A stretch of 64,000 bases of DNA, from assembly GCA_017962565.1 (NCBI GenBank), contig JAGCVC010000001.1, positions 9,754 through 73,753 of the forward strand, written 5' to 3'. Source of the stretch: Alphaproteobacteria bacterium (lineage in GTDB: Bacteria > Pseudomonadota > Alphaproteobacteria > CAAHEQ01 > UBA3637). The position numbers and the translations under genes were made by a program. The notes under the pieces were generated by a model. That model saw only the letters and a program-made list of their open reading frames with translations. It was not told the DNA's origin and did not search any database. Shown piece by piece: positions 4,601-59,500 of the stretch (position 1 is the first letter of the stretch; each line of letters begins with the position of its first letter).

Positions 4601-7600
4601 TCCATTGCCTTCATTTCGATCTAAACCGGCAACATTATTAGTTTCGTAAGAATCAGCAACATGCGCAACACAATTATTTCCATAATCTTGCAACCAGAAT
4701 TTAAGATTACTACCTGTACTTGCAGCACTTCTCAAATTTGCATATCCGGTTGATGTACATGCCGTATCCGGATAACATGCTATGCTGTTTGTTGTTGCTG
4801 ATGGTGTCGGGCGACTTACTGTACTTTGTGATACACACCAACTTTGTGCACTCCACCAATTCATCGGTTTGCTACGCAACCACTTATGTCCATCAGCTGT
4901 TGTCACCTCGGAATTATCCGGTGCATAATCAGAGACAGGCAAACACTTACCAATTCCAGATTCTGCACAAGAGGTAGCATCTCCAAAATAACAGAACCCG
5001 CCTTCTGGACATCCGCCATTCTCCACGCCTTTTTTCGTCCAACTTCTACACAAAAGTTCTGCTTTACACAAAGCACGGATATTCTCCGGCCTTGGTGCAC
5101 CAATGCCCTTTAAGTCATCTTCAGAATAATAAGTCAAACTTACATTGCCATTTGCATCTTTGCCACCAACCACTACGGCATGAATGCAATTACATTCCGT
5201 TTGAGTACCTGCACAAGTGCCCCGACTACAACCATTAGATGTAGAATGGGATACATGACTGCCACCGTTTATCCAGAATGATCCACCGGTAATCTTTCCT
5301 GTCTTTACAAGGCTGACTAATTCATCATCAGTTGCAAGGTTATACCCATGTTCTGCATCATTACGTTCCATTTGTCCTATTGCCCAACAATAACTCTTGG
5401 CGGTTGCAGCACTTACTGAACCGAAAGTATTATAAACAAAACGATCAAATGCACTATCATTCAATAAAACACTTTGTTTACCCCAGAATGCTACCGGATT
5501 ACAAGCACCAATATTAGGTACTTCAGTATCGCCAGTAGTGGATTTTCTTATAGTATATGCTCCGGGTCCATCTCCAGATGAATCCGCACGACAAACAGCA
5601 GATCGCGAATAAGTACAGAAAGTACTTCCGGGGCCGATATTAGTAACATCACACACACCCCAATTAGAACATCCCCAAGGAACGCCTGTTTCCAAATCTG
5701 GTACGCATCTGTTACAACCGTCATTTTCTACAAGATGGTAACCCGTTTCACATGCTGCACATGCATGGTTTGAACCACTTATTGCGGTACAATGAGGCAT
5801 TAAACAATAACCACTTATTTTACAGGACTCTTCACAATTGCTTATACAATCCGTTGAATTACACAAGTGATCAAGGCATACACCATTCGCACAAGGCGGA
5901 TTTGGACAAGGTGGCGGTGAAGGACATGTACATATCCCATTGACATCAGGACATCTTTCCGGACATGGACATTTAGTATCCGGATCAGGGTACTCAGCAT
6001 CTTTGTCACGAAGAGAAGCCTCTAGTGGATCGGTTGGCATTACACACTTATATTTTGTACATGGACAATCTATATTTGCCTCTGGGTAGTACTTACTTGT
6101 ATCTTCTTCTGTACAAATATTACCATCGGAAAGTTCATGTGGCAAAGTATGTTGTACACATGGTGTCTTACATACCCATTCGCCGTCTTCATAAAAATCT
6201 TTCCAACCATCTCCACAAGGACATCTTAGCTTTTCATCAGTCGTTGCATTACCTGTAAAAGTCGTACGACATACATCATCGACAGGATCAACAGGAACTT
6301 CTTTACGATGCGCTTCATTTGTCGGCTTTATACATGAACATCCTTCACATTTACAATATACAACAACCTTCGAATATGATTGATAAATCCATTTTGGCAA
6401 TCGAATTCTACCTTCTGCCGTACAATCTGTTTCATCCTCAACACATATACGTTCACACGTTTTATTATCACTGCTCTTGCTCCAACCTGTATACTTTACT
6501 CCGTCTATTGTCAAACCAGAGACAGATAAATCTTTTCCAGTCATACACGGACATGATTGATTTGGCGTATCATATTCCTGTCCTTCATTGTATTCTGTAC
6601 AACATGGATTATAATCGGATGAATCAATCGTTGGCTTTTTACAAGGATAAGAATACTCAATGCATGGGCAATAATCATCATCCGCATTTGTTAAGGAATA
6701 ATTATTATATGCGACGCACCCTTCTATCTTATGGGCTTCGTCACGTTCTCTACAATAGCATCTATGTACGCTTTCAGGAGCAGGCCCCACTCGATCCGGA
6801 TACTCTGCCGGACAAAGACAGCTAACCCCTTTCGACCACGTCGTCGGACATGTTCCATTTGATAAAAGACCGCCCGACAAAAGCGTACCTGTAATCCGGT
6901 GTGGATCTTCATGCGGGTCATACCCATCAGGTGTTACACAATAACAACAATCAGCACAACACGGACAAGGTCCTGCGTTTGTTGAACAAGAATCATACGC
7001 AGAACACCCTTCTATTGCGTTTGCACTTGTTCTTGTCTGACAATAACATTTTTTTGTACTATCATTTCCACAAGTTCTTTCTTCATAATTACTTGTATCA
7101 CAATAGCATTTCGTAGTCTCATTATACGTAGATGCGCATACCTGATGATAATTTGCATCTAACGCCCTTATAAGACGACGTGCAGCATCTTCTGTATCAG
7201 TCGGCATCACACAATTACAGTTACATGGACAGAACGGCACAACACCGTTTGTCACTTGTGATGCAGCATAAACTGTCGACGTATTTTCTGATCCGTTACA
7301 CAAAGGATCCGTATTACCCGGCGTACAACAATAATCTTTACATGTACAAGAAACTACGCTACTTGGATGTTCACTGTGCACCCATTTTTCATTTTCATTA
7401 TATGAATGACAATTGTTACCAACTCCTGTGCCTGTACAACTGCTGTTAGGTATTCCTGGAACGCAACTACGTACGCACTGATTACCGCTAATGCTCCAAC
7501 CACCATAGTTTACTCCATCGATGACCAAACCGGTATCTCTTAAATCAAGGCTGTTATCATTTACATCTGTACATGGACAAGGTTGATTTGGTGTAGAATA

Positions 7601-28364: not shown

Positions 28365-31082
28365 TTAATATTCACAAGATCCATTGTTATAGGTACGAAC
28401 ATGCTGGCTTCCAGGATAGTCACATTTGTCGCATTCTTCCTTTGATGTTTCCTTGGCGTTCGCGTTAAAACATCTTGTACAATTACCATTGGCATTTCTG
28501 AACCACCCCAACGGACACGACCAATCGCAATAACCATCCTCACCTATTTCACGGGTACCACATGACAAACATTCTGCATCATTATAAGCCCCTCTTCTGT
28601 AAAGATCTTCACAACTTCTACACTGTTGATCTGAACTCCAATATTTACCGGCTCCACATTTTGGTACATTCGTTCCATCACATGTCGCACCGGATGGACA
28701 ATTTGCACAACTGCTACCATTCCAGTACTGATTACTATTGCAAGATGTTGCCGTTACACGCGTTCCGTCGCATGTTGCACCCTCCGGACAATTTACACAA
28801 GAACTGCCGTTCCAATACTGATTTGTTCCATGACAGCAATTCACGTACAAAGCGTTAGAAGCGCTATTAGTATTAGGAGCATAGGTATGTGAAACATAAC
28901 CGGCCTTACAACTTGCCCCCGTTCCGTCACATGTTGCGTTATTTGGGCAATTCCTGCAAGTATTACTAATCCAATATTGATTACTTTTACAACAAGCCAA
29001 ATTTCCGGTAGAAGTCATATGTGAAGTATAGTCGCCTCCACAATTTCCTTCCGAACCATTACATGTCATACCGTTTGGACAAGAAACACACTTATTACCG
29101 TTCCAATATTCCTTCGTGTTGCTGCAACAATACGAAATACCGGAATAGTTTGTATGTAAAATATAGCCACTTGGACAATTATCTCCTTCACATGTTGTAT
29201 TATTATTCGGACAAGCATTACATTTATTACCACTTACATATCTACCTTCGCCGCAATCTACTATAGTAAAGCCATCACATCTTGCATTGTCAGGACAATT
29301 AGCACAATTAGTCCCATTTTTATATTTACCTTCGCCACAATTTGTTATTTTTCCTGCCTCACATGTCGCACCGCTTGGACAAGCAGCACAACCGTTATCA
29401 TTCCAATATTGATTTGAAGTACAACAATATTTATCGGCTCCGTTTTTCTCAAACAAGAAGGAACCCTCATTACATCTTACATTTTTCCCATCACATGTTC
29501 CACCGTTTGGACAATTCTTACAAACACCTGCGTTATTCAAATACTTACCACTACCACAATCTGCTTTTGTTCCATCACATGTTGCACCGTTAGGACAAGT
29601 TTTACACGAATTAGTTTCATGATCATAGTATAAGAAACCATTACCGCCACAATTTACACCGGTTCCATTGCATACTGCACCGGAAGGACAAATATAACAT
29701 CCCCCTTCTTCTAACAAATACTTACCTTCCCCACAAGTTTCTATACCCGTTTCGTTACATGTTGCATAGGATGGGCAGAAAGAACAAAAGGATCCATTCC
29801 AATACTCATTTGCACTGTTACAACAATACAAATTAGGAACGTTGCCATGTGAAATATAGTTCGCCGCACAACCATTTACATTCACTCCATCGCATATTGC
29901 ACCGGTTGGGCAAGGTTTACAAGCACCTATTTTATTCAAATAATAACCAACGCCACAATTTGCATTCGTTCCGTCACATGTTGCACCGTTCGGACAAAAT
30001 TGACAGACACCCGTCCAATATTGACTTGTATTGCCACAGCAACCTACATTTTGTCCTTCTTTATGAAGAGTGTAACCTTCCGCACAACCCGTTATATTTT
30101 TACCATCGCACACCCCATGAGCGATGCACGATGAGCAATTAAACTTACGTTCATTCCAATATTCTCTTCCTATTTCACAACAATACGCGTTGTTTTGATA
30201 TACCTTAGCTAATAGATACCCTGACGGACAATCCGCACTTGTTCCATTGCACGTCATACCAGTCGGACAAAATTCACATGTTTCGCCATCCCAATATTCG
30301 CTTTGTTCTCTACAGCATCCGTACAGTTCTTCAATATTACCATTGAACACATAACCTTCGTGGCAACTGAATTTTTTTCCGTCACAAACCAAATTACTAC
30401 CCGGGCAATCTGCACAATTACCATTTCTATCTATATATTTACCTTCACCACAGTTTGCGTTTGTTCCATTACATGAAGTAAGACCATCCGGGCAACTTGC
30501 ACAATTGCCATCATTGTCTACATATTTACCTTCCCCACAATTTGCATTCGCACCATCGCATACTGCACCCGCCGGACATGTTGCGCAACTGGATCCATTC
30601 CAATATTCATCTTCTTGGCATCCATAATCTTTAGGCTTGACCCCACCTTTACTGCCGTCAAATGCTATACCTATGTTATTGAATTCTGCACATGATGCCT
30701 TCTGAACCAGTGCCATTTCGCCATTTTCATAGACATCGTAGTAAACTACCTTTCCCCCCTTCATCTTTAACATATGTTCGCAGATTTTTTCCGGAACCTC
30801 TATCGCTTGCACATATGTTATTAACTTACCATGACCTGTTGCACGTATAACTTTAAATACAAACCCGCTTTCCGCCGCTATAGAGTATTCTGTCCAATTT
30901 GGATATTCTGTCTCTGTTGATTCAACCGATCCATATATCAAAGATGCATCCTGAATCGCTCTATTGGCTCTATTCTTATTCATCACATAAGAAAAACCAA
31001 ATAATGCTGCTACACTCAATATACCTATAATTGCCAATACACTCAGTGTTTCCAGCATGCTACGTCCGCGTTCATTTCTCAT
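28365..31082 (-). CDS. Cysteine-rich modular protein (905 aa) with N-terminal prepilin-type signal (RG|RSMLETLSVLAIIGILSVAALFG) and about 18 tandem Cys-rich modules of roughly 35-40 aa (YCC..EYWNG..C..CP.GATCDG.NANCGEGKY)
   Basis: Uninterrupted ORF; RBS GGAGGAAAG 9 nt upstream of ATG 31082; N-terminal 30 residues about 75% identical to those of the 2526-aa protein; regular Cys spacing throughout. Confidence 0.8.
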   Translation of the reverse strand: MRNERGRSMLETLSVLAIIGILSVAALFGFSYVMNKNRANRAIQDASLIYGSVESTETEYPNWTEYSIAAESGFVFKVIRATGHGKLITYVQAIEVPEKICEHMLKMKGGKVVYYDVYENGEMALVQKASCAEFNNIGIAFDGSKGGVKPKDYGCQEDEYWNGSSCATCPAGAVCDGANANCGEGKYVDNDGNCASCPDGLTSCNGTNANCGEGKYIDRNGNCADCPGSNLVCDGKKFSCHEGYVFNGNIEELYGCCREQSEYWDGETCEFCPTGMTCNGTSADCPSGYLLAKVYQNNAYCCEIGREYWNERKFNCSSCIAHGVCDGKNITGCAEGYTLHKEGQNVGCCGNTSQYWTGVCQFCPNGATCDGTNANCGVGYYLNKIGACKPCPTGAICDGVNVNGCAANYISHGNVPNLYCCNSANEYWNGSFCSFCPSYATCNETGIETCGEGKYLLEEGGCYICPSGAVCNGTGVNCGGNGFLYYDHETNSCKTCPNGATCDGTKADCGSGKYLNNAGVCKNCPNGGTCDGKNVRCNEGSFLFEKNGADKYCCTSNQYWNDNGCAACPSGATCEAGKITNCGEGKYKNGTNCANCPDNARCDGFTIVDCGEGRYVSGNKCNACPNNNTTCEGDNCPSGYILHTNYSGISYCCSNTKEYWNGNKCVSCPNGMTCNGSEGNCGGDYTSHMTSTGNLACCKSNQYWISNTCRNCPNNATCDGTGASCKAGYVSHTYAPNTNSASNALYVNCCHGTNQYWNGSSCVNCPEGATCDGTRVTATSCNSNQYWNGSSCANCPSGATCDGTNVPKCGAGKYWSSDQQCRSCEDLYRRGAYNDAECLSCGTREIGEDGYCDWSCPLGWFRNANGNCTRCFNANAKETSKEECDKCDYPGSQHVRTYNNGSCEY

Positions 31083-31290: not shown

Positions 31291-34200
31291 TTAAATTTGT
31301 TTGATTTGACGTATACCCGGAATTGAACACAAAGCACCGATTGTATCGGATGATAGAGCATACCCGTTTGGCAATTTGATTTCCACTTGGTAATCATTGG
31401 CCTGAACAACAATAATTGCCGTTCCGCGTCCTTTTTTGTCTGCATCTAAAACTTGTTTTACTCTTGGTAAACAAGAAGCACTTTCCACATAAATCATAGC
31501 CGTTTCGGACATACTAGCCACAACATCGGCCAAATATTCAACATTTTGGACTGTTGCACGTACAGCACCTTCTTCGTTTAAATCAGCGGCCAACGACACA
31601 ATCAATGGCTTGTTTGATTCCAATTTTTCACGACTTTGATTCAACATTTCGGAAAAGCACAGAGCTTCAAAAGTTCCAACAGTATCCGAACCAACAATAA
31701 AAGCAAATTTCTTACCGCTTTTTTGACTGATTCTTTCGCGTTTTTCATTGATAATACAAGCAATTCGCAAACGTGCTGAACCGGCGCTTTTCACTAAAGG
31801 TTCAATTTCATTTGTAAAGTTAACACGCAAACGTTCAAAGTTATCTGCATAAGCATCCAACGGGTGCGCAGATAAATAAAAACCGACAGCTTCACGTTCC
31901 AAATCCAATTTTTGCATTGCCGGATAATCGGGAATTTCCTGCATGCGCAATTCTTCAAAAGATGCTTCCCCGCCAAAAAGTGAAGCTTGCGAACTTTCTC
32001 TTGATTTTTGTAAACTGGCTGCATGCTGTCCCATTTTTTCGACATTTGCCAATAATTTTGCCCTGTTTTTATCCAAACAATCCAATGCACCGGATTTAAT
32101 CAAACTTTCCAAACAACGTTTGTTCATAACGGCCGGACTTGAACGCGCAATAAAATCTTGAATAGACTTATACGGTCCGTTCTTTTCACGTTCTGCGACC
32201 AATTCTTCCACAGCACCGTCACCCACATTTTTAAGCGCAGATGCAGCATAGCGAATAGCACCGTCTTCCACCGTAAAATTAACACAAGATTTATTAACAT
32301 CCGGGGGCAAAATTTTAATCCCCATTTGCGAAATTTCACGTTTAAAGAAACCCAATTTATCCGTATCGATTTTATCCAAAGTCATTGTAGCGGCCATAAA
32401 TTCAACCGGGTAATGCGCTTTTAAATAAGCTGTTTGGTAAGAAACAAAGGCATACGCCGCTGCGTGTGACTTATTAAAGCCGTAGCTGGCGAATTTTTCC
32501 ATTAATTCGAAAATTTCAATAGCTTTTTCTTCTGCAACACCCTTCTTTTTAGCGCCTTCAATAAAGACTGCTTTTTGTTGTTGCATCACATCAAATTTCT
32601 TTTTACCCATAGCACGGCGCAACAAATCTGCTCCGCCCAAACTGAAACCGGCTAATACTTGAGCAATTTGCATAACCTGCTCTTGATAAATCATAATACC
32701 GTAAGTTTCTTTTAAAATACCTTCCAACAAAGGATGTAAATAATCGGGTTGTTCTTGTCCGTGCTTACGTGCAATATAGGATGGAATATTTCCCATCGGA
32801 CCCGGACGATACAAAGCCACAATAGCAACAATATCTTCGATCTTATCGGGCTTCATATCTTTTAAAATTTTGCGCATACCGGCACTTTCTAACTGGAACA
32901 CCCCGGAAGTATCCGCATCACCCAACAATTTAAATGTATCAGGATCATCCAAAGGAATAGCACTTAAATCAAATTCAATTCCTCGAAGCTTCAATAATTC
33001 CATCGTCTTTGCCAACGTGGTTAAAGTCTTTAATCCCAAAAAGTCAAACTTGATCAACCCCGTTGACTCAACATATTTCATGTTGTATTGAGTTACCGGC
33101 ATATCTGATGACGGATCTTTATAAATCGGCAAAATTTCATTTAAAGGAAAACGTCCGATAACAACACCGGCTGCGTGTGTAGAAGTATTACGGTATAAGC
33201 CTTCCAATTGCAAAGCAATTTCGAGCAAATGTTTAATTTGCGGCTCATTTTTTGCTTCTACTTCAAAAGCCGGTTCAATATCCAATGCTTCTTGCAAAGA
33301 ATACGGCTTGCCTTTTTCATTCATACCGTTTGGTACTAATTTTGAAAGCCTATCCACAACCGGATAAGGAATTTGCAACACGCGCCCGACATCTCGAATA
33401 ACCGCTTTAGGTTGCAACTGACCAAAAGTAATGATTTGCGCCACATGATCAAAGCCATAATGATCTTGCACATATTTGATACTTTGTTCACGCTTTTCCT
33501 GGCAAAAATCCACGTCAAAATCCGGCATGTTCACACGTTCCGGATTTAAAAAACGTTCAAACAACAAATTAAAACGCAAAGGATCAATATCGGTAATTGT
33601 TAAAGCCCATGCCACCACAGAACCGGCACCCGAACCACGACCCGGACCGACCGGAATATTATGTGCTTTTGACCATTGAATAAAATCCGCAACAATTAAA
33701 AAATAACCGGGAAAGCCCATCTGCTTAATTACGCTCAATTCATACTGTAAGCGCTGATTATATTTTTCAAACTCATCAGAGCGATTTTTCATACGCGCGG
33801 CCAAACCGGTTTCTGCTTTTTCACGCAAGACTTCATCTTCCGTTTTACCATGACAATCATAGCGCGGAAATTCGGGCTTATGAAACTCCACCATAAAACC
33901 GCAACGTTTAGCTATTTGAACCGTATTTTCCAAAGCTTCCGGTAAATCGGAAAATAATTCAGCCATCTCTTCCGGGCTTTTTAAATAATGCCCCGGCGAT
34001 AATCGTACTCTGTCTGTTACATCAACATATGTTTTTTGACCTATACACATCAAAGCATCATGCGCTTCATACATTTCCGGTTTATCATAAAAAGCTTCGT
34101 TTGTTGCAACCAAAGGAATATCCAAATCAAATGCCAATTTTAAAAATTCATCTTCTGTTTTAGCTTCGTCCGGTTCACCGGTTCTGGAAATTTCCATATA

Positions 34201-34728
34201 AAAGCGATTGCCAAAAGCTTTTTTTAAAAATACCGTTAATTCTTTGGCTTTTTCTGGTTTTCCCTGTAAAATATAACGTCCGATCGGACCTGTTGCACCA
34301 CCGGAAAGCAGTATCAAGCCTTCATTAAATTCTTTTAATTCTTCTAATAACAAATGCGGCGTTGTTTGTTTTGTCGGTCCCATATAATAGCGGTCAAAAA
34401 TTTTGAGTAAATTCTTATAACCAGCTTCATTTTGTACCAACAAAATAATTTTATCTAAAATGGGATTGATTTGGTCTTCCGGTAAAATAAGTTTACCTTT
34501 TTCCGTTTCTTGTTTCAATAACAGCTGTGTTCCCAAAATCGGTTGAATACCGTTATCGGCAGCCTCGTGCGAAAAATCCATACCGCAACAAAGATTTCCG
34601 CTGTCCGTCACAGCAACGGCAGGCATATTTAATTCTTTGACACGTTTTACCAACTTGCCCATTTTCATTGCTCCTTCAAGCAATGAATAAGCAGAATGTG
34701 TTCTTAAATGGATAAAAGTCGGTGTCAT
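31291..34728 (-). CDS. dnaE: DNA polymerase III alpha subunit
   Basis: 1145 aa; PHP domain N-terminus (IHLRTHSAYSLLEGA), polymerase core and OB-fold; length and motifs canonical. Confidence 0.95.
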   Translation of the reverse strand: MTPTFIHLRTHSAYSLLEGAMKMGKLVKRVKELNMPAVAVTDSGNLCCGMDFSHEAADNGIQPILGTQLLLKQETEKGKLILPEDQINPILDKIILLVQNEAGYKNLLKIFDRYYMGPTKQTTPHLLLEELKEFNEGLILLSGGATGPIGRYILQGKPEKAKELTVFLKKAFGNRFYMEISRTGEPDEAKTEDEFLKLAFDLDIPLVATNEAFYDKPEMYEAHDALMCIGQKTYVDVTDRVRLSPGHYLKSPEEMAELFSDLPEALENTVQIAKRCGFMVEFHKPEFPRYDCHGKTEDEVLREKAETGLAARMKNRSDEFEKYNQRLQYELSVIKQMGFPGYFLIVADFIQWSKAHNIPVGPGRGSGAGSVVAWALTITDIDPLRFNLLFERFLNPERVNMPDFDVDFCQEKREQSIKYVQDHYGFDHVAQIITFGQLQPKAVIRDVGRVLQIPYPVVDRLSKLVPNGMNEKGKPYSLQEALDIEPAFEVEAKNEPQIKHLLEIALQLEGLYRNTSTHAAGVVIGRFPLNEILPIYKDPSSDMPVTQYNMKYVESTGLIKFDFLGLKTLTTLAKTMELLKLRGIEFDLSAIPLDDPDTFKLLGDADTSGVFQLESAGMRKILKDMKPDKIEDIVAIVALYRPGPMGNIPSYIARKHGQEQPDYLHPLLEGILKETYGIMIYQEQVMQIAQVLAGFSLGGADLLRRAMGKKKFDVMQQQKAVFIEGAKKKGVAEEKAIEIFELMEKFASYGFNKSHAAAYAFVSYQTAYLKAHYPVEFMAATMTLDKIDTDKLGFFKREISQMGIKILPPDVNKSCVNFTVEDGAIRYAASALKNVGDGAVEELVAEREKNGPYKSIQDFIARSSPAVMNKRCLESLIKSGALDCLDKNRAKLLANVEKMGQHAASLQKSRESSQASLFGGEASFEELRMQEIPDYPAMQKLDLEREAVGFYLSAHPLDAYADNFERLRVNFTNEIEPLVKSAGSARLRIACIINEKRERISQKSGKKFAFIVGSDTVGTFEALCFSEMLNQSREKLESNKPLIVSLAADLNEEGAVRATVQNVEYLADVVASMSETAMIYVESASCLPRVKQVLDADKKGRGTAIIVVQANDYQVEIKLPNGYALSSDTIGALCSIPGIRQIKQI

Positions 34729-34796
34729 ATACTCTAATTCCTTTGTTACGAGGAGTCATAGCATATTTTTTTCAAAAAATCAACGGATTTTAAATA

Positions 34797-35168
34797 TCAT
34801 TTTGTTTCTGTTACATGCGTTTCCGGTTGATACGTAGATTTCAGATAATTGGCAATTTCTTTTTTATAAACTTGTATCAAAATTGCCAAAACAAAAACAC
34901 TAAAAAGTAGAAAGAATATAAAGCCCGAAAAAAGTCCTGCTTTTGGATGGGGCAAAAGCATAAAAATTAAAACAGCTAAAACAATTATAAAGAATGCTCC
35001 TATTGTCAATATAGACAATATAAATTTGTTCACATCCTCCCCTTTTGCAGCCGCCTTTTGAAGTTCTAAGTATATTGCGTTTGCGATCTCAATTATGTTG
35101 TTATGAAAACAAACGAACACCAATGCCAAAAGTAATAAAATAATACAAAAAAACACTCTTTTTTTCAT
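34797..35168 (-). CDS. Hypothetical small membrane protein (123 aa, 3 TM)
   Basis: ORF; ATGA start/stop overlap with upstream 195-aa gene. Confidence 0.5.
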   Translation of the reverse strand: MKKRVFFCIILLLLALVFVCFHNNIIEIANAIYLELQKAAAKGEDVNKFILSILTIGAFFIIVLAVLIFMLLPHPKAGLFSGFIFFLLFSVFVLAILIQVYKKEIANYLKSTYQPETHVTETK

Positions 35169-35752
35169 TTTTCTTCCACTAAAGCTCCGTTTTCCAAATG
35201 AGTATGCCCGTCTGTCTTGGCTGCTAACTGCGGATCGGGTTTTGTAATTAAATCAGCTAATTCTTTTTCGATCATTGTATTTAGCAACAAACACTTACCT
35301 TCTTTGAAACTTCTGTTTTGACATTGCTTACACAATTCTTCGTTAACATTAACCGCCTTTAATTCTTTACACAAAACTTTTTCTTGTCCGTTTTCAATAA
35401 CAACTGCATTGGGTAAATGAGTAAAGTAATAATATATTCCAAATATAAAAACAGGCATCAAAATTGCATTTACTTTTCTTACCCATCCGCCCTTTAAAAA
35501 GGCTAAAATTAAATTAAGCAAAATGAAAAAAGAAAAAATAGAAATAACGATAACACCATTCGAGGCATCTTTGGAAAATCCTAAATACATTAATTGGAAA
35601 TATTCAGATGCAAAATCCATTGTCTCCAAATGAAAAACATAAAAAAATGTTAAAAGAAAAATCCCTTGAATAAGACTAAGCCATACAGTCCATGGATTAT
35701 CCCGCAGTCTTTCATCTTTTTCTTTTAAAGAGGCCTCATAAAAACTTTTCAT
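35165..35752 (-). CDS. Hypothetical membrane protein (195 aa) whose last about 20 codons are a duplicate of the lolD 3' end
   Basis: ORF with ATGA overlap to lolD stop; C-terminus ...DPQLAAKTDGHTHLENGALVEEK parallels LolD ...NPQLAAKMDRRIHLENGILVEEK and the DNA is about 85% identical over about 70 bp. Confidence 0.55.
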   Translation of the reverse strand: MKSFYEASLKEKDERLRDNPWTVWLSLIQGIFLLTFFYVFHLETMDFASEYFQLMYLGFSKDASNGVIVISIFSFFILLNLILAFLKGGWVRKVNAILMPVFIFGIYYYFTHLPNAVVIENGQEKVLCKELKAVNVNEELCKQCQNRSFKEGKCLLLNTMIEKELADLITKPDPQLAAKTDGHTHLENGALVEEK

Positions 35753-36438
35753 TTCTCCTCCACCAAAATACCGTTTTCCAAATGAATACGCCTGTCCATT
35801 TTAGCGGCCAACTGCGGATTATGTGTTGCAATTAATGCAGACAACCCAGTTTGACGTACTGTGCTCAATAACTCGTTAAAAACCTTTTCACTGGTCTTTG
35901 GATCTAAATTACCGGTCGGCTCATCCGCCAACAATAAAGTCGGTTTATTTGCCAAAGCACGAGCAATCGCCGCACGTTGTTGCTCACCGCCGGACATTTC
36001 TCCCGGACGGTGTTTCAACCTGTGTTTTAATCCCATTGTTTCCAACAATTCTGTTGCACGCTCTGCCGCTTCTTTTTTATCGACACCACCGATTAAAAGT
36101 GGCATCATCACATTTTCCAAACACGTAAAATCCGGCAATAACAAATGCGACTGATACACAAAGCCCAAGTATTTGCGGCGCATCATCGTGCGTTCTTTTT
36201 CTTTCATTTTAGCACAAGGTTGACCGGCCAAGAAAATTTCACCCGCGCTGGGTGTATCCAACAAACCTGTTTGGTAAAGCAAAGTTGATTTACCGCTACC
36301 GCTGGGACCTGTTAAAGCAACAATTTCACCTTTGGCAATTTTTAAATTAACACCGTTTAAAACGTTCAGTCGTTTATCACCATCACCAAACCAACGTTTA
36401 ATATTTTTCAATTCCAAAATCGTATCAGTCATGTTCAT
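35749..36438 (-). CDS. lolD: Lipoprotein-releasing system ATP-binding protein LolD
   Basis: 229 aa ABC ATPase; Walker A GPSGSGKST, signature LSGGEQQR, Walker B LLLADEPT, LolD-type length. Confidence 0.85.
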   Translation of the reverse strand: MNMTDTILELKNIKRWFGDGDKRLNVLNGVNLKIAKGEIVALTGPSGSGKSTLLYQTGLLDTPSAGEIFLAGQPCAKMKEKERTMMRRKYLGFVYQSHLLLPDFTCLENVMMPLLIGGVDKKEAAERATELLETMGLKHRLKHRPGEMSGGEQQRAAIARALANKPTLLLADEPTGNLDPKTSEKVFNELLSTVRQTGLSALIATHNPQLAAKMDRRIHLENGILVEEK

Positions 36439-37031
36439 TTTCCAGAAAAAAGAATTATAAGAACCATTATTATAATAAATAAAATTTGTATTTTAAAATT
36501 TAACATATCGGTCGTGTCTGCTCTTTTGCCTTTCATTTTGCCCAAATAGAACCTTAAACGAAGTAACATCATATTCAATACAACCAACACACAAATATAA
36601 GCAGACCATTTAATTGACAAAATAGGAATGCTGAAACCCACAGGAAGCACTGCACTTTTCCATAGTTTTTCTTTCTTTTTCTTGCCAAAAAAACACCATG
36701 ATAATTGTACACTTATTACAGATAAAAAAGCAAAGCCCCAATTTCTTAAGGTATTATCGATATATCCTATTGCAAAAGGTATGGAAGAAAAGAAAATTCC
36801 CACCAACCATATAAAAGCAATAACCTTTTTCAAAAAAGAAACCAAAAAATTATTTCCTTCTATTAACTCTTGTTTGGTGAGTTCTTCGGAATCATTATCA
36901 ACATCATCTGCATTCATAGATTGCGCCACAAAACTTTCCCCACCCATTTGAAAGAAAGGATTGAGTTGTTTTCTTTTGGATGATTTTTTCAATTTTATCT
37001 TACCCATACCATTCCCTTTTTTAATCATCAC
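36435..37031 (-). CDS. Hypothetical membrane protein (198 aa) inserted between lol permease and ATPase genes
   Basis: ORF with 4-nt overlap to lolD start; several TM segments; exact start uncertain (internal Met at residues 2 and 9). Confidence 0.5.
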   Translation of the reverse strand: MMIKKGNGMGKIKLKKSSKRKQLNPFFQMGGESFVAQSMNADDVDNDSEELTKQELIEGNNFLVSFLKKVIAFIWLVGIFFSSIPFAIGYIDNTLRNWGFAFLSVISVQLSWCFFGKKKKEKLWKSAVLPVGFSIPILSIKWSAYICVLVVLNMMLLRLRFYLGKMKGKRADTTDMLNFKIQILFIIIMVLIILFSGK

Positions 37032-38250
37032 AAGTTCTGTCTATACCGCCATTGGCAAAATTAATAAAAGCAGAACCCGTCAATTCTCTTTTTTCTCCTT
37101 TATCCGTATAGCAAAAACTTTTTATCATTTTTCCGTCTTTGAATTCACTTTCCATCGACAAAGAACCGTTTTCATTATATAATCGTTCATAACCGTTCTC
37201 TTTATCGTCTTTAAATTGAGTTTCTTGTATAATTTGACCATTATCTAAATATATTCGGAAAAATCCTTCTCTTTTCCCGTTAACAAAATCTGTTTCTTGT
37301 CTGACACCAAAACGAACGGCTGTTTTTCCATCTGCATGCGGATAATATATTTGTTTTCCTTCTTGTTTTCCGTCTTTGTAATAGAAAGTCGAAACAATCT
37401 CTCCGTTTTTGTTAAATGTCTTTGCCGGACCATTTGCAACACCATTTACACGTTCAAACGTTTCGAACAAACTTCCGTCCGGCGAGTAAACTTCAACTGT
37501 TCCATGCTCTATTCCATTCACATACGGTATCTTCCACAATTTATCTTGTTTTTCCACTTCGGCAACACTATTACGGAAAACACAATAACCGTTTTTCATC
37601 TCTCTGTTACTACAACGTGCGCAATCTTCTTCGGAATAACGAAAATCTTTATCGGAACAACTTTCGCATCTGCCAGAATAGGTATTTTTCAAAGGATATT
37701 TTTCATTCAAACACTTTTTAGGAACGCAATGATCATTGAAAAATTCTGCGTTTGAACACTTTAAACATTCGCTTTCTGAAACACTCCACGCAACGTACGT
37801 TTCCGGACAAGACACACAGTAACCATCTTTGTCCCTTATTTCACCTTCTTTACACTTGTAGCGACATTTCCCGTCCAACCAAACACGATTGTCAAGTGAC
37901 TCACAGTCTTTTTGATTTGTTGTATTTACGGAAGGCCCCCTTTTAGTCTCCCAATGTTTGACTTGCTGCGTGCGTACAAAGAAAATAGAAGAAAAAAGCA
38001 CACCCGTTAAAAGAATGTTAGATAAAAGAAATATCCCTAAAAACTTCCATTTACGTGCAAGGACAGAAAAAAGAATAAAGAAAAACAAATACATTCCCAA
38101 AAAAACAAAAAAAGTAATGGGAGTTTCCACTATAAGATAGTATCGTGTTTCTGTCGGAAGAAGAAATACAATACATAAATATATTCCCAACAATGAAACA
38201 CATACCAATAAAGATAAAAATAAAGATTTTAATACTGTTAATTTTTTCAT
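37021..38250 (-). CDS. Membrane-anchored protein (409 aa): 3 N-terminal TM helices, Cys-rich linker, C-terminal MORN/YwqK-like repeats (G..EG....Y..NG....E..FKDGK)
   Basis: Complete ORF overlapping downstream gene by 11 nt; repeated YxxxGxxxG/FKDGK motifs characteristic of MORN-repeat proteins. Confidence 0.6.
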   Translation of the reverse strand: MKKLTVLKSLFLSLLVCVSLLGIYLCIVFLLPTETRYYLIVETPITFFVFLGMYLFFFILFSVLARKWKFLGIFLLSNILLTGVLFSSIFFVRTQQVKHWETKRGPSVNTTNQKDCESLDNRVWLDGKCRYKCKEGEIRDKDGYCVSCPETYVAWSVSESECLKCSNAEFFNDHCVPKKCLNEKYPLKNTYSGRCESCSDKDFRYSEEDCARCSNREMKNGYCVFRNSVAEVEKQDKLWKIPYVNGIEHGTVEVYSPDGSLFETFERVNGVANGPAKTFNKNGEIVSTFYYKDGKQEGKQIYYPHADGKTAVRFGVRQETDFVNGKREGFFRIYLDNGQIIQETQFKDDKENGYERLYNENGSLSMESEFKDGKMIKSFCYTDKGEKRELTGSAFINFANGGIDRTCDD

Positions 38251-38265
38251 ATATTCTATCCTTTT

Positions 38266-53549: not shown

Positions 53550-56500
53550 TTAATACAGCGTATCTGAAGCATTCACACGACTGGAACCACGTTTTGCCAA
53601 CGGCTTAGCCACACTCTGATTAACCTTGTAGTCCGATAATCCCTGACGAGAACGATAACGATCTTCCAAGCTCTGTTCTTTCTTGGAAGCCGTTTCTTCA
53701 TCTTCATCAGAAGAAGCCGGTGTATAGATATTTTCATCTGTATATTCCGGTTCGTAATAATCCTCATCATCTTCAGATTCTGCTTCATCGGATCCCTGTG
53801 ATCCATTCGTTGCAGCAGGACGTGTCGAACGGTCAGCAGTTGGTCTTTGCTGCATCCGACCAGAATTACCCTTTGGTGTCTGAGCCGCTGTCGGATCCGG
53901 TCCGTTTTCGGCAACATAATCATCTTCATCATCCTGTTCGCTACGTAACCACAAATCATCCATAGCAAACACAGTCATACGCGTACCGGACGGAACAAAA
54001 ACAACCGGCGGAGTTGAAGAAGATTCTTCTATCATCTGCTGGAAGATTTGTTCCATGTCATCCAAGAATCTTTCACGTGCATCTTGTGCAGCTTGAGCTC
54101 TGGCAGATTGAGTAGAAGTACCATAGTTTTCATTGGTAGTTACAGCATCATCTGAGGAAATAATATAACTGATTGCAGAAGTCAATGTTGATTGCAACAA
54201 AGGTTTACCGTAACGAGCTAACCATTGTTCATCCAAGTAAGCAGCTACACCGCCTCGACCTTGAGCATCTCCGGATGTTCCGCTTAAAGTAAACTGCGAT
54301 CCGTCAGGACGGATTAAACGTTCCCAAGAAATTTCCATCATAGACACGTGGTTTGTTCCTGCACCACCCGAACAACGACCGATTAACTTACTACCGGCCG
54401 GGATAACGATATTACGTCCATCTTCAGCAAACACATTACGTTCCACAATTGCAGAAGCAGGCACACTCGGATAACGAGAGTCAATTGAACGTACTAACAC
54501 AGCAGGAATTGCTTTGTCTTTCAAAATCATTCTTGTCATGTCAACCGGCCAAGATGAAACGATCTTTGAACCAAAATCTTTATCCTGTTTTTGTTTTGCA
54601 CGCGCTAAGACACGTCCGTCTGGTGTAATCTTTGCCATATTACGACCAACACCTTGTTTCATTTCTGCCCGTCGACGAGCCAACAAATCACGCATTGCAG
54701 AAGCTTGTGCCGGATCAAACTGTAATTTTTCTTGTGGATAAAGCCCGTTTGCACCCGTAGCACCATTCAATCCTAATTCATCAGCTAACAAATTGCCGGA
54801 TAATGAATAAGGAACACCATTGCGTAAAGTACCAACAACTGCACCGGTTGCATCAACAATTGTATTATCAGGCATTACAAAGAAACTCTTATCCCCGATT
54901 GCAATCCGACGACCCGTTAAACCGGCACCACCTATTCCCGGCGATCCCGCTAACAAATTCTTTACACCGGAAACAAATCCCGTTGAAGAAGTGGGTTTTA
55001 ATTTACCAACAACTTTACCATTGATTTCAACAGTACCATCCGGATGAATCTTTCCGATGATATTACCATTTGCATCACGGATGTTTCCGAATTCGTCAAC
55101 ATAACCGATGACATTACCGTATTTATCATAAACTATACAATTTTTGATGGTATAAAGCAATTCACCATTGTCATCATAGACTGTTCCATCATACTTTTTA
55201 CATGGCGGGTTTGTATCCAATTTACCCAAGATTTTACCATTGACTTCAACAGTACCATCCGGATGAATCTTTCCAATGATATTGCCATCTTTATCGCGAA
55301 TGTTTCCGTATTCATCCACATATCCGATAACATTACCGTATTTATCATACAAGACACAATCTTTAATCCAACCGTTCATTTCACCATTTTCATCATAAAT
55401 GATACCATCGTATTTCTGACACGGTTTTTCAAAGTCTTCAAACATCGTAATTGTGCCATCAGGATTCAAACGTCCTATTGGTTTACCGTTCATATCATAA
55501 ATGATGCCGTCCGGTCCGATCCAGCCGGTTTGATTACCATCCAAATCAAATAACTTACCGTCTTTGATATATCCCGTAATATTACCGTTTGCATCATAAA
55601 TGTAGTTTGGCAAATTCGTTGCATTACCAATCTTATTTCCGGCTAAATCATAGATATTGCCGTCTTCATCCAAATAGCCAATTAAGTTACCGTTTGGATC
55701 ATACAATTTATCATCGGCACCAACCGTAAATAAGTGCTTACCGTTATTGTCAAATACTTTACCGCCTTTATCCATAGAACCGATAATGTTGCCATTATCA
55801 TCAAAGAGCAAGTGGTTCTTTTTGATATCGACAACAGAACCGATCTTGTTGCCGTCCAAATCAACAACCGTTCCATCACCCAATACTTTACCGATAACTT
55901 CACCGTTAGCATTAACAACTTGTCCGTTTCTTAAAACACGACCGATAACGTTTCCGTTTTCATCAACAACAATACCGCGTTTTAATACATGACCGATAAC
56001 ATTGCCATCGTGGTCAATAACCGTTCCGTCTTCCAAAGCACAACCGATTGACACACCTTCCATATTTACAACATCAGCATCCGGCAACGTACGACCCAAC
56101 ACATCACCATTGTCTGCAATAACAGTTCCTTTTAATACAATACCGCCCAAAGATTGACCTTTTTCGTCTTTAGCCAATCCGTCTAATCCGACATAACCGA
56201 CCACTTTGGCATTACCATCAATAATACGACCATCGTAACGAACTTGTCCTTGAATTTGACATTGTTTTGTAACCAATTCTTTCGGAACAACAGCACCTAA
56301 AGTTTTTAATTGATGCTTTCCTTTAACAGCTCCGTTAGAAGCCAAAGGACCAACTTTTGCACCTTTGATATCTGTTACATAACCGTCACCGGTTGAATCA
56401 CCGATAACATTTGTTTGATGATCAATTGCTGTTCTAAAACCAACCAAAGCACCGGCCAAATTACCGTCTGTTCCCAACAACGTTGCATCATCCAAAACGG

Positions 56501-59500
56501 AAGCTATCTTTTTATTAGCTATATCTAAAACATCACCACTAGGCATTGAACGACCGAATAAAACCGGTTTCAAACCGATCGCAGCACCACTGCTGATAAC
56601 ATCTGCAAAATCAGGCATTACACCATAACTGTCACGACTGAGCAAACGAACGATTGTACCATCCTGCATAGCACGTCCGACAAGTGCTCCGTCTGCTTTA
56701 ACAACAGAACCATCAGGTGCAACAAAACCAACTATTTTTGCAAAATCATCTACCGCTGCACCGATCGGCATTGTTATACCAACCAAACGATTGTCAACAC
56801 TTAATGCTGTACCGAACGGCATCAGTGTTGCAATACGTGAACCTTCGTTATCATTAACCGCATTTGAAATAGATGTTGTACCGACAATACGTCCGTCACG
56901 ACCAACCATCACGGATGGTTCAATCAAACCGCCGACAACTTTATCCAAGGAATCATACATAACTGAATCCGGTAAAGTTTTTGCCGCCAAAGTATTACTT
57001 TGTAAAACCGTTCCATCGGCAATTGCATTTCCGGCAATTGATAAATCGGAAGCCAAACAAATACCAAACGGAACATATCCTCCAACGATTGCCTTATTCT
57101 TATCTACAATACGCATACTGGTTGTTAAAACATCTGTTTCTTCAACACCATCAACTTCTTGTAAAACAGTAGCATCAGAGAAAATATGTCCCATGACTTT
57201 GCCTTGTTCATTTTCTGCAAAGCCTTGCGGCATCATGTTACCCAAAATTTCATCATTATTATTGACCAATGTTGTTCCGATTACTTGTCCGACAACGGCA
57301 CCTTTGCCATCACGAACAACACCATCAAATGCCATAGCACCCAATACTTTTCCTTTTTGATCAAAGTAAAGTGTTCCGTAAGGAATATAAGAACCTAACA
57401 CTTGATTGTTAGCATCTATAATTCTGTTATCATAACGAATTTGTCCGATAGCTTGTCCGCGTTCATTGACAACAGCAGCATCATAACGTGTGAATCCCAA
57501 TTTTTTACCATTGACATCCAATGCAACACCTTTTTGTAAAACGCGACCAACCCAAATATCTTTTGCATTGATTAAACGGTCATCATAAGGGAAGGATCCC
57601 AATACTTCGCCCGTACGACCCAAAACACGTCCGTCAACGGAAACGACACCTGCAAAATTACCTTTTAAATCCGTCACTGTTTGACGCGGTATCAAATGAC
57701 CAACTTGCATACCGGATTCATCAACAGCATATCCGTCAGGCATCATCTTTCCGATAGAATGGAAATCTTCACGTGCATTTACTTTTCCTTCAAAGGCTAA
57801 CCAACCTTTTACTCTGCCGTCTGTTCCGATAACAGAACCCAAACGCACCAAAGAACCTAAAACTTGACCGTTATTACCGTAAACATTACCGGCAGCCGTC
57901 ACATGTCCGACAGGCTTACCGTCTTTATTTACTTCGCCATTGATTGTCATAAATCCGATTAATTCACCGTTCTTACCCAATGGAATAGAAGCTTCCGGGA
58001 ATACCATACCGATAACGGCACCATCAGAATTTAAAACTGTTCTGTTTAAAGTAACAACACCGATTTGTTTTTGGTCGGCAGACATAACCGTTCCGTTACC
58101 TTGAACAGAACCCAATACCTTACCATTCCAATCTAAAACAGAACCGGTCGGCATCAAACCACCCAAGACGACACCATCTTTATCCATGACACTGCCATCA
58201 GCACGAATATTACCCAAAATTTGAGAATTACTATCTATTACTTCACCGTTACCGTTAACAGAACCGATCCGTTCATTATCAATATTGATAATCTGACTGC
58301 CATCCGGAATCAAAGCACCGATGATTTCTGATTTTTCGATACTGACAGCTGTATAATCCGGCAAGACACGCGCAAACTTAACACCTTTTGGATCCATCGC
58401 AAAACCAATCTTGCTGGTAAAGCGTCCCAAGAAACGACCTTCCGGAGAAACGATGATACCATCTGGCGGAATAAATCCGATAATTTCACCACGTTCATTA
58501 ACAACTTTATCATCAATCAACGTACCGATTAAATTACCGTTCTCATCATATTCTTTGCCATTAACAACGGTCCAACCTGTCGGATTACCATTTTCATCCA
58601 AAATAGCACCCGCTGTTGCATCAGCAACAATACCGATTAAGTTACCTTTTTCATCAACAACCGTTCCATCCGGGTTAACGCAACCGATAACAGAGCCGGT
58701 CTTATCAACAACTTTTCCATCCGGACGAACATAACCCAAGAATTTACCTTTTAAGTCTACAACCGCACCCAACGGGGTAACACCACCGATAACTTCCCCG
58801 GATCTGTTCAAAACTTTTTTATCCGGATCAACAAAACCGACAGAAACACCTTCTGAATTGATTACTTGGCCATTCAAATCAAGAATACCCAACAAGACAC
58901 ATCCCGGAGCAACAGCGGTTCCTTTTGGTATAACCGCACCGATAATCTTTTCGTTCAAATCCATCACATAACCGGAAGTCAGGACAGAACCGACAGCTTC
59001 ACCTGTTGGTTTGACAACAAAACCACTTGGTAAAACCAAACCTTGAACTTCACCATCATATCCGATTACACGACCCCGTGGCATAATCGCACCGATAATT
59101 TCTTTACCGGAAGCAACTGATCCATCCGGATTAACACAACCGATTAAATCAGCATCTTTCGTAACAGCCTTACCTTCAGAATTTAAGAAGGCAATAACTT
59201 CACCCGCCGGATTAATGATTAAACCTTCACGAATAACCATACCGACCGGAACTCCGGACATATCTAAAACTAAACCATTGATTGTTGTGTAAGCAACTTG
59301 TTGATCAAAGGCATTATAAATTTTACCATTACCGCCAACTTTACCCAAAATACCGCAAGTATGACCGATACCTAAACCTTTTGCAACAGTTCCACCGACA
59401 ATGGCGCCACTGTCATTGACAACCAAACCACCCGGTAAGATCCGTCCGATTACTTGACCTTCAGCCGAAACAACCGTACCATTTAATTGTGTAGCACCAA

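Follow-up and report, generated by a model that had tools for sequence, protein, structure and literature searches.

A relic of the lolD 3' end within a chimeric membrane-protein gene at an accessory-gene hot spot of uncultured Alphaproteobacteria

How did the 3' end of an essential transporter gene come to lie a second time, in frame, at the end of the next gene in its operon? The question is raised by a 64,000-nt stretch of DNA (here called the window) from an uncultured alphaproteobacterium (GenBank assembly GCA_017962565.1, contig JAGCVC010000001.1, positions 9,754 to 73,753), in which the minus strand carries, in this order, lolC/E, orf409, orf198, lolD, orf195, orf123 and dnaE. A first-pass annotation of the letters had proposed that a gene for a protein of 195 amino acids (aa), orf195, was inserted recently between lolD and a 123-aa gene, orf123, by a recombination that copied the lolD junction. 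We found that orf195 is a chimera composed of a membrane-protein body, a bridge of seven codons and a tail derived from lolD, and that the interval between lolD and dnaE, two highly conserved essential genes, is a hot spot of this clade of gut bacteria, at which small membrane or secreted accessory open reading frames (ORFs) are gained, lost and exchanged. The tail probably reached its position when two alleles of the locus, each with a different accessory gene, were joined. Loci fetched from relatives are given L numbers below, and homologous proteins P numbers.

The lolD 3'-end repeat and the composition of orf195

The features on which the argument depends are as follows.

35749..36438, minus strand: lolD, ATPase of the lipoprotein-release ABC transporter (Pfam ABC_tran, E=7.7e-34)
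35165..35752, minus strand: orf195, chimeric ORF with an X-family membrane protein (family label explained below), a short bridge and a lolD-derived tail
35282..35752, minus strand: X body, orf195 residues 1-157, two to three hydrophobic helices followed by a Cys motif
35261..35281, minus strand: bridge, orf195 residues 158-164 (NTMIEKE), placed by alignment and by direct reading against the relative locus L098
35746..35840, minus strand: repeat copy 1, the functional lolD 3' end, with codons for LSALIATHNPQLAAKMDRRIHLENGILVEEK, its stop codon and the ATGA shared with the start of orf195
35162..35256, minus strand: repeat copy 2, the relic lolD tail, that is orf195 residues 165-195 (LADLITKPDPQLAAKTDGHTHLENGALVEEK), followed by the stop of orf195 and the ATGA shared with orf123
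34797..35168, minus strand: orf123, small membrane protein with an N-terminal and two further hydrophobic segments (hydropathy)

A single direct repeat was found here, in which 35162-35256 matched 35746-35840 (minus strand) over 95 nt without gaps (73/95 identical, 77%; spacing 584), and a scan of the whole window agreed. The repeat spans the last 31 lolD codons, the stop codon, the overlapping ATG and codons 1 and 2 of the ORF that follows, and similarity dropped to background upstream of approximately 35260/35844. The first-pass annotation had correctly recognized that the lolD 3' end and its stop/start junction are duplicated. However, it put the repeat at about 70 bp and about 85% identity, and the measured identity was 76-77% over 76-95 nt (58/76, or 76%, in its 76-nt core, 35165-35240 against 35749-35824), still above the 65% below which it would have withdrawn the claim. 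At this base composition, the binomial probability of 73 matches in 95 was about 4e-24 per position pair and about 2e-14 over all pairs in the window. When the lolD tail was aligned with 34701-35745, the Smith-Waterman score was 51, compared with 10.3 +/- 1.3 (maximum 16) for shuffled sequences.

Both copies hold the same frame relative to their stops, giving the peptides LSALIATHNPQLAAKMDRRIHLENGILVEEK in lolD and LADLITKPDPQLAAKTDGHTHLENGALVEEK in orf195 (21/31 residues identical), each followed by a stop codon, and both run into AAATGAAAA, the stop/start overlap. Copy 1 contains a Shine-Dalgarno-like run, GGAGGAG, inside lolD and 4 nt 5' of the orf195 ATG. In alignment with E. coli LolD, the 31 duplicated codons covered the H-loop and the final strands of the ATPase core; the catalytic H-loop His was lost from the relic (ATHN to TKPD), showing that no ATPase function can remain in it. 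In annotating the 195-aa protein, its ABC-transporter-like end should be treated as a relic and not as a functional ATPase domain. The repeat structure was identical in two independently made assemblies of one strain (L002 and L003) and was also present in a third sample with about 3% protein divergence (L001), indicating that it is not an assembly artefact.

The body of orf195 belongs to a very small family of Cys-motif membrane proteins, specific to the clade and without annotation, for which we use the label X. The motif in orf195 reads LC-x12-C-x2-C-x-NR-x-F-x-E-G-x-C, its Cys codons falling between 35291 and 35371, and hydropathy suggests a topology in which two to three transmembrane helices precede a Cys-motif domain outside the cytoplasm. 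A word-index search of 5.8 billion proteins with orf195 returned one close homologue, a 97% variant from the same species, and an exhaustive HMMER search of 1.84 billion representatives returned only two real relatives and one fragment. The X relatives P0125 (157 aa, encoded by orf157 of L098) and P0126 (154 aa) were each 54% identical to the orf195 body, and a distant one (orf214 of L010, 214 aa, from metagenome-assembled genome SIG52; 27% identity) is encoded downstream of lolD. L098 orf157, P0126 and L010 orf214 aligned to residues 1 to about 157 of orf195 and ended a few residues past the Cys motif; no lolD-like tail was found on any of the three by alignment. The proposal that a lolD-derived C-terminus was grafted onto orf195 was borne out for residues 165-195. 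In the three X relatives the Cys motif takes the form ..C-x2-C-x-NR-x-F-x-E/N-G-x-C-LL... The motif was also present in orf409 (E=4e-6) and in secreted, Cys-rich ORFs of L013 and L014 (L013 orf185) and of L090 (orf166). Neither orf195 nor orf123 matched a Pfam or NCBIfam family above threshold, and two scans of Joint Genome Institute metagenome contigs, one with the X alignment and one with the orf123 alignment, gave no matches.

The bridge is probably the former 3' flank of X. It keeps a TGA that aligns with the X stop of L098 one base out of frame (..TTGCTAAATACAATGATCG.. in the window, ..TTGCCTAACAAGTGAATT.. in L098), suggesting that a small indel cost X its original stop and that its reading frame now closes at the relic lolD stop, where orf123 begins in overlap.

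Between the window and L001, orf195 showed 10 synonymous and 7 nonsynonymous differences, with a ratio of nonsynonymous to synonymous divergence (dN/dS) of 0.165 (P=5e-4 against neutrality), demonstrating that it is a real, constrained gene. The relic tail alone showed 4 synonymous and 1 nonsynonymous differences (P=0.01, small numbers). When the two repeat copies were compared, all 13 nonsynonymous differences fell on the orf195 copy and lolD was conserved there; dN/dS of the orf195 copy was about 0.6 on the assumption that the 11 synonymous differences are split equally between the branches. These values point to a constraint on the orf195 tail that is relaxed and not absent.

Accessory ORFs between lolC/E and dnaE in related genomes

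The locus was fetched from approximately 30 related uncultured Alphaproteobacteria by means of lolD, dnaE and orf123 homologues, mostly from human-gut and ruminant metagenomes. The order lolC-lolD-dnaE is conserved across Alphaproteobacteria. In the window, the following features frame the comparison.

38266..39507, minus strand: lolC/E permease (Pfam MacB_PCD and FtsX), conserved left-hand flank
37021-38250, minus strand: orf409, accessory ORF inserted at the lolC/E-lolD junction
36435-37031, minus strand: orf198, accessory ORF inserted at the lolC/E-lolD junction
34729..34792, minus strand: ancestral lolD TAA and lolD-dnaE spacer (TAAAATCCGTTGATTTTTTG...TATGCT...), displaced to just 3' of orf123
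31291..34728, minus strand: dnaE, conserved right-hand flank of the hot spot

Nothing lay between lolD and dnaE in many relatives, among them L011, L012, L016, L020, L024 and L099, and in L011, L012, L016 and L099 the two genes abut. A spacer of about 60 nt was all that separated them in L007, L008 and L094; it starts TAAAATCCGTTGATT, which is the lolD stop followed by promoter-like sequence. The empty site reads GAAGAATAA followed by AATCCGTTGATT in L004, L008, L094 and L101. This empty lolD-dnaE site is the ancestral state. The ancestral TAA and spacer were found directly 3' of lolD in L004, L008, L094 and L101 and 3' of the inserted ORF in L090 and L098, and the insert of about 1 kb in the window fits precisely into the gap after the last Glu codon of lolD and before the ancestral TAA. 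Inserts were found at three places.

lolC/lolD overlap: orf115 in L004; orf205 in L010; orf185 in L013 and L014; orf405 in L090; orf61 and orf191 in L094; orf171 in L096; orf409 and orf198 in the window
lolD stop codon: X in L010; orf111 in L013 and L014; orf166 in L090; orf123 in L096; orf124 and X in L098; orf195 and orf123 in the window; an ORF of unassigned identity in L092
Just upstream of the dnaE start: orf137 in L004 (6749-7162, 137 aa); orf127 in L101 (2353-2736, 127 aa)

The lolC/lolD overlap was empty in L007, L008, L011 and L012, in which lolC is about 86-94% identical. The ORFs of L004 and L101 at the third insertion point are unrelated orphan membrane ORFs, located between the promoter-like spacer of dnaE and the dnaE start, and each ends in an ATGA overlap with dnaE. 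Across this clade, insertion is hypervariable at the start/stop overlaps on both sides of lolD and immediately upstream of dnaE, where at least 10 different orphan ORFs occur in the various species. The hot spot itself is the more interesting by-product of the analysis.

Several of these arrangements bear directly on orf195. In L096, lolD (ending EEK and a stop) overlaps an orf123 homologue through ATGA, and the homologue is followed by TGATATT/TAAAAC (the slash marks the junction), the spacer and dnaE, with no 195-aa gene; the synteny that the first-pass annotation had proposed to look for, lolD directly followed by the 123-aa gene, does therefore occur. Several closer relatives have lolD beside dnaE and neither orf195 nor orf123. 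The window and L096 share the orf123 C-terminus (..TETK and a stop) and the right-hand junction TGATATT/TAAAA. In L098, lolD (ending HLENGVLVEEK and a stop) overlaps orf124 through ATGA, orf124 overlaps X through GTGA, and X (157 aa, ending CLLPNK and a stop) is followed, past the junction, by TAAAATCCGTTG, the spacer and dnaE. This order is opposite to that of the window, the 95-nt repeat and the tail on X are absent, and the orf124 C-terminus is altered. The outgroup L010 has lolD-X-dnaE. Since the order in L098 is lolD-123-X and its X is free of the tail, both genes were stacked independently, in opposite orders, in two lineages.

A second, independent example that supports the general pattern was found in L090 (5681-6181), where orf166, a secreted, Cys-rich protein of 166 aa, is inserted at the lolD stop. 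This ORF uses the ancestral TAA as its own stop, after ..CVLVEE, and includes a short copy, at least 14-18 nt long, of the end of lolD (Smith-Waterman score 17 compared with 7.4 +/- 1.4; 0/2000 shuffles). No significant relic of the lolD tail was detected upstream of X in L098 when compared with its own lolD (P=0.27), nor at the orf123 3' end in the window (P=0.27) or L096 (P=0.41). Prompted by a 46-nt alignment in L090, the Cys motif (CP[ND]RxFxEGxC) was compared with the lolD tail (MDRRIHLENG); the resemblance was rejected, as the extension past the last 14-18 nt was not independently significant.

The small membrane-protein gene orf123 behaves as a cassette that passed between species. Its homologues P0123 and P0124 were 69 and 65% identical, and it lies directly 3' of lolD in L096 and L098 with the same GAAGA(A/G)AAATGAAAAAAAG junction. 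Synonymous divergence (dS) of orf123 (34797-35168 in the window, 1394-1765 in L096, 85-459 in L098) was 0.48 between the window and L098, 0.54 between the window and L096 and 0.34 between L098 and L096, far below the 0.9-1.7 of core genes of these species, showing that orf123 moved between species. The low values indicate a recent exchange of a small cassette.

Timing, history and competing explanations

Core genes (lolC, lolD and dnaE) differed between the window and L090, L004, L008, L094 and L098 by a dS of about 0.83-1.1, with the exception of L008 lolD (1.73), and between the window and L096 by 1.5-1.7. The strain L001, at a dS of 0.03-0.26 from the window (0.16-0.26 for core genes), has the same repeat structure already. 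As a separate observation, L008 lolD was 85.7% identical in amino acids to that of the window (dS 1.73), and L008 lolC and dnaE were 93.5-93.7% identical (dS 0.92-0.93); this pattern suggests that lolD itself was exchanged by recombination in the clade.

The two repeat copies differed at 11 of 19.7 synonymous sites (a proportion of 0.56), and the window's lolD tail showed a synonymous difference of 0.55-0.56 from those of L004 and L090, which are separate species. Because the divergence of the copies equals that of lolD tails between species, either the event dates back roughly as far as the species group itself or another member of the group supplied the tail, and the event is not recent. The claim of a recent insertion was consequently not upheld, given the 56% difference at synonymous sites and the presence of the structure in L001. 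The dS of X between the window and L098 was 1.04, a core-like value. Of the earlier picture of an insertion with a copied junction, the insertion and the copied lolD end stand, but the 195-aa gene is not clearly the newcomer: X lies beside lolD in L010 and has a dS of 1.04, and it is orf123 that moved.

We consider it fairly probable that an allele carrying X and an allele carrying orf123 were joined by one illegitimate crossover, the tail being the leader of orf123. The starting alleles would have been lolD-X-spacer-dnaE and lolD-orf123-spacer-dnaE, each with its accessory gene in ATGA overlap with the lolD stop. In the lineage of the window, a single illegitimate (non-homologous) junction would have joined the X 3' flank to the orf123 allele at a position about 93 nt within its lolD, and the other crossover would have been ordinary homologous recombination in a conserved flank. 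Such homology-facilitated illegitimate recombination is formally equal to unequal crossover. Its product would be lolD, X, lolD tail, orf123, spacer and dnaE, in which the repeat would be the second allele's own lolD 3' end rather than an in-situ duplication. The proposed illegitimate junction (X flank to lolD position -93) was mapped within about 10 nt. The tail would have been kept as the translational leader of orf123, supplying its ribosome-binding region, a stop codon and the overlapping start; X would then have lost its stop by a small indel and read through the seven-codon bridge and the 31 lolD-derived codons to the relic stop, which would restore termination-reinitiation coupling with orf123. 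A separate illegitimate junction near the orf123 3' end would have given lolD-123-X-spacer in L098. Two single-cassette alleles joined independently make up the simplest history, because L010, L096, L098 and the window are all accounted for.

We infer that the tail was retained mainly as a translational leader and coupling site of orf123, because ATGA overlaps occur at every junction from orf198 to orf123 and a GGAGGAG run precedes orf195. We also lean, slightly, to X as the resident gene and to the tail with orf123 as the incoming unit, on the basis of the divergence data and of X beside lolD in L010.

Several points weigh against this history. The alignment that locates the old X stop is short and requires two indels. 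The Shine-Dalgarno-like element before orf123 (GGAAGAA) is weak, and the coupling function is read from sequence geometry alone. When nucleotide and synonymous distances to 13 lolD tails were compared, the relic tail was equidistant (55-59/78 nt) from four of them, in the window, L004, L098 and L092, and it may be either foreign or the genome's own. L096 and L098 are short metagenomic contigs (2.7 and 1.6 kb), and no genome at a dS below 0.5 was found with only lolD-X or only lolD-123; since the species group of the window provides no intermediate, the order of events is deduced from distant genomes and short contigs.

The same product would arise if, as the first-pass annotation proposed, X had been inserted in situ into a resident lolD-orf123 junction. 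Template switching during replication or a staggered break would then have left a long target duplication, about 95 nt of the genome's own lolD end, and sequence by itself hardly separates this course from the crossover between alleles. Direct repeats flank the X body exactly, L096 would represent the state before insertion, the tail has the PQLAAK signature of lolD of the window/L004 type, and in L090 a short duplication of the lolD end flanks another insert at the same site. However, the synonymous divergence of the copies (0.56) is of between-species size, and the tail is no closer to the window's lolD than to L004 lolD, which does not speak for a copy of the resident gene. Further, X appears old in the clade and stands beside lolD in L010, and orf123 is the gene that appears recently exchanged. 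We therefore regard duplication in situ as possible but rather unlikely. The reversed order of the same two genes in the window and L098 would also follow if an L098-like ancestor had duplicated the segment lolD tail-123-X and then lost the first 123 and the second X. This would explain why the tail is contiguous with the orf123 start, and the lolD/X junction of the window matched the 123/X junction of L098 at 17/20 nt, a borderline similarity (P about 0.016). Three events are required, however, the duplicated intermediate was not found in any genome, and the window shares with L096 the ..TETK end and the TGATATT/TAAAA junction, which an L098-like ancestor would already lack; such a history is improbable.

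Less credit still can be given to a mobile element, by which X or orf123 would have been moved by a transposase or site-specific recombinase, leaving the repeat as a target or att duplication. Many single-ORF cassettes do occupy precisely the same sites across species, and copies of the end of lolD stand on both sides of two inserts. Yet no integrase, transposase or recombinase was present within 10 kb on either side (precomputed Pfam), no inverted repeats occurred at the unit boundaries and no Rfam match was obtained. The duplicated length varies (95 nt here, about 14-18 nt in L090), unlike a fixed target-site or att duplication, and the repeats are diverged, not exact. As to an integron, there was no integrase in the 20-kb neighbourhood and no structured-RNA or repeat signal; no dedicated attC search was made. 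The least credible explanation, that orf195 is a decayed tandem paralogue of the whole lolD gene, draws on a BLASTP match between orf195 and lolD (130 residues, 31% identity, E=1e-11) and on a tblastn match of orf195 to L004 lolD. The BLASTP score, however, stems from the last 31 residues, and DNA similarity ends at 95 nt. Residues 1-157 match X proteins, which have no ABC ATPase similarity, and contain hydrophobic membrane segments; the 584-nt spacing is about 100 nt shorter than lolD, and no relative has two lolD genes. Whole-gene duplication of lolD was rejected on these grounds, with the signal confined to the last 31 residues and a body of the X family.

The preferred history, in which two single-cassette alleles were joined, resembles displacement at known loci. 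For type VI secretion system (T6SS) effector-immunity modules in Vibrio cholerae, displacement by homology-facilitated illegitimate recombination was proposed, with the old effector's 3' end "shifted back", a shift that the authors tied to the C-terminal displacement of rhs (PMC5361080). As cited there, rhs and contact-dependent inhibition (CDI) loci undergo C-terminal displacement that leaves orphan 3' fragments (Jackson et al. 2009, PMC2935791). As in those arrays, a conserved upstream gene serves as homologous anchor, the new module is placed beside it, and the older module shifts downstream, taking along a relic of that gene's 3' end; the 95-nt lolD tail between X and orf123 corresponds to the relic between modules. 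Module content likewise varies among close strains and species without an integrase, alternative and single-module alleles exist (lolD-123 in L096, lolD-X in L010, lolD-123-X in L098, lolD-orf166 in L090, and empty sites), and at least one module, orf123, was horizontally acquired as judged by dS. The locus differs in that the anchor is an essential housekeeping ATPase gene, lolD, and not a toxin gene. Its modules are single small ORFs for membrane or Cys-motif proteins with no Pfam or NCBIfam sign of toxin-immunity function (PADLOC and toxin libraries were not searched), and the relic was absorbed in frame as the C-terminus of the neighbour instead of remaining an untranslated orphan. The recombination mechanism here is, in addition, deduced from sequence.

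In bacterial pangenomes, integration hot spots are intervals where accessory genes turn over between conserved core genes that supply homology arms. The lolD locus shares with them the accessory turnover in one core-flanked interval, but its inserts are single ORFs of 110-410 codons placed at start/stop overlaps within an operon, with no mobile-element genes. It is similar to the att-site duplication left by islands or prophages in a gene 3' end, in that the gene end is intact on one side of the insert and recurs as a displaced copy on the other; it is dissimilar in having no integrase, an insert of about 0.5 kb, repeats of 77% identity and a repeat length that is variable at the same site elsewhere. 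Unlike transposons or insertion sequences, it has no transposase in the 20-kb neighbourhood, no terminal inverted repeats and no duplication of fixed length. With chimeric (composite) bacterial genes, which form by partial duplication or fusion, and with C-terminal extensions by stop loss, orf195 has in common an unrelated body joined to a fragment of an older gene and, probably, the loss of its own stop, so that it reads into neighbouring sequence. Unlike composite genes, its lolD fragment comprises only 31 codons of the ATPase core, which cannot fold or function as in LolD, and the value of the relic tail likely lies at the mRNA level, in coupling to orf123, and not in a protein domain.

The relic 3' fragment and the chimeric ORF are a known kind of trace of illegitimate recombination at a core-flanked hot spot. 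The case is instructive yet fairly ordinary and opens no new class of system. It provides a clean, datable instance of a composite bacterial gene, in which a relic of an essential gene would have arrived as the leader of a cassette and become the C-terminus of a neighbour, and it supports accessory-gene turnover between core flanks without mobile-element enzymes. A bolder reading, which we think quite unlikely, would make the lolD 3' end no passive hot spot but a specialized docking place, at which envelope proteins that evolve fast (Cys-motif, MORN-repeat and small membrane ORFs) are wired into Lol translation by start/stop overlaps and swapped among gut species living together as units of leader plus gene; copies of the tail would then act as portable ribosome-binding leader and homology arm, with no recombinase. 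If it were true, junctions of essential operons would be recombinase-free, integron-like platforms in reduced genomes.

Gene identities and other features of the window

The lolD product is 229 aa long from the first ATG, or 227 aa counting from the ATG at 36432. Its top NCBIfam match was TIGR02211 LolD (E=1.6e-82, 276.3 bits), which did not reach the curated equivalog cutoff of 307.75, and its top PDB matches were the solved E. coli LolD chains (7v8l_D, E=2.7e-64, residues 6-227). The gene lies downstream of the LolC/E gene, and in insert-free relatives lolC overlaps lolD directly. Since the TIGR02211 score is below the curated threshold, the name lolD rests on best match and gene context. 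The lolC/E gene (38266-39507) exceeded the cutoff of TIGR02212 lolCE (463.6 bits; cutoff 362.45). From orf198 to orf123 the genes all join through ATGA-type overlaps, and operon junctions are ATGA or GTGA. An Rfam search of 34000-40000 gave only a chance miRNA match (E=0.99), and a promoter/terminator scan showed no enrichment over shuffles and no hit inside the repeat.

At the lolC/lolD overlap, several inserts reuse the ancestral lolD start codon (ATGAATAAA..), giving proteins that begin MNKE.., MNKK.. or MNKS... In the window, the ancestral lolD start overlapping the lolC stop survives as a mini-ORF of 5 codons (ATGAATAAAAAAGGATAG; 38256-38273, minus strand) just before the orf409 start at 38250. 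The orf409 product is membrane-anchored, with a Cys-rich region and MORN_2 repeats, and showed a weak NCBIfam match to the LIC20035 adhesin family. It was 64% identical to L090 orf405 (3764-4981) with a dN/dS of 0.20, compared with about 93-96% and 0.03-0.05 for lolC, lolD and dnaE of the same species; by this comparison orf409 appears to be a fast-evolving envelope protein.

A tandem pair of paralogous orphan genes occupies 41902-44487, between uvrD and thiF (ORFs 41909-43180 and 43220-44464, minus strand; 423 and 414 aa). The two are about 70-75% identical in DNA, including their 3' ends and junctions (repeats D8, D14 and D15); L004 has one copy and L008 none. Directly downstream of dnaE, a 905-aa ORF (28365-31082, minus strand) contains many degenerate Cys-rich repeat units of about 84-135 nt, and the ORF at this position differs in relatives. 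Very large ORFs with internal tandem repeats were also found at 13722-18425 (1567 aa), 18873-21605 (910 aa), 1631-9211 (2526 aa) and 53550-60545 (2331 aa), with units of, for example, 117 nt at 15820-16922 and 165 nt at 20378-20872, and these are probably repetitive surface proteins.

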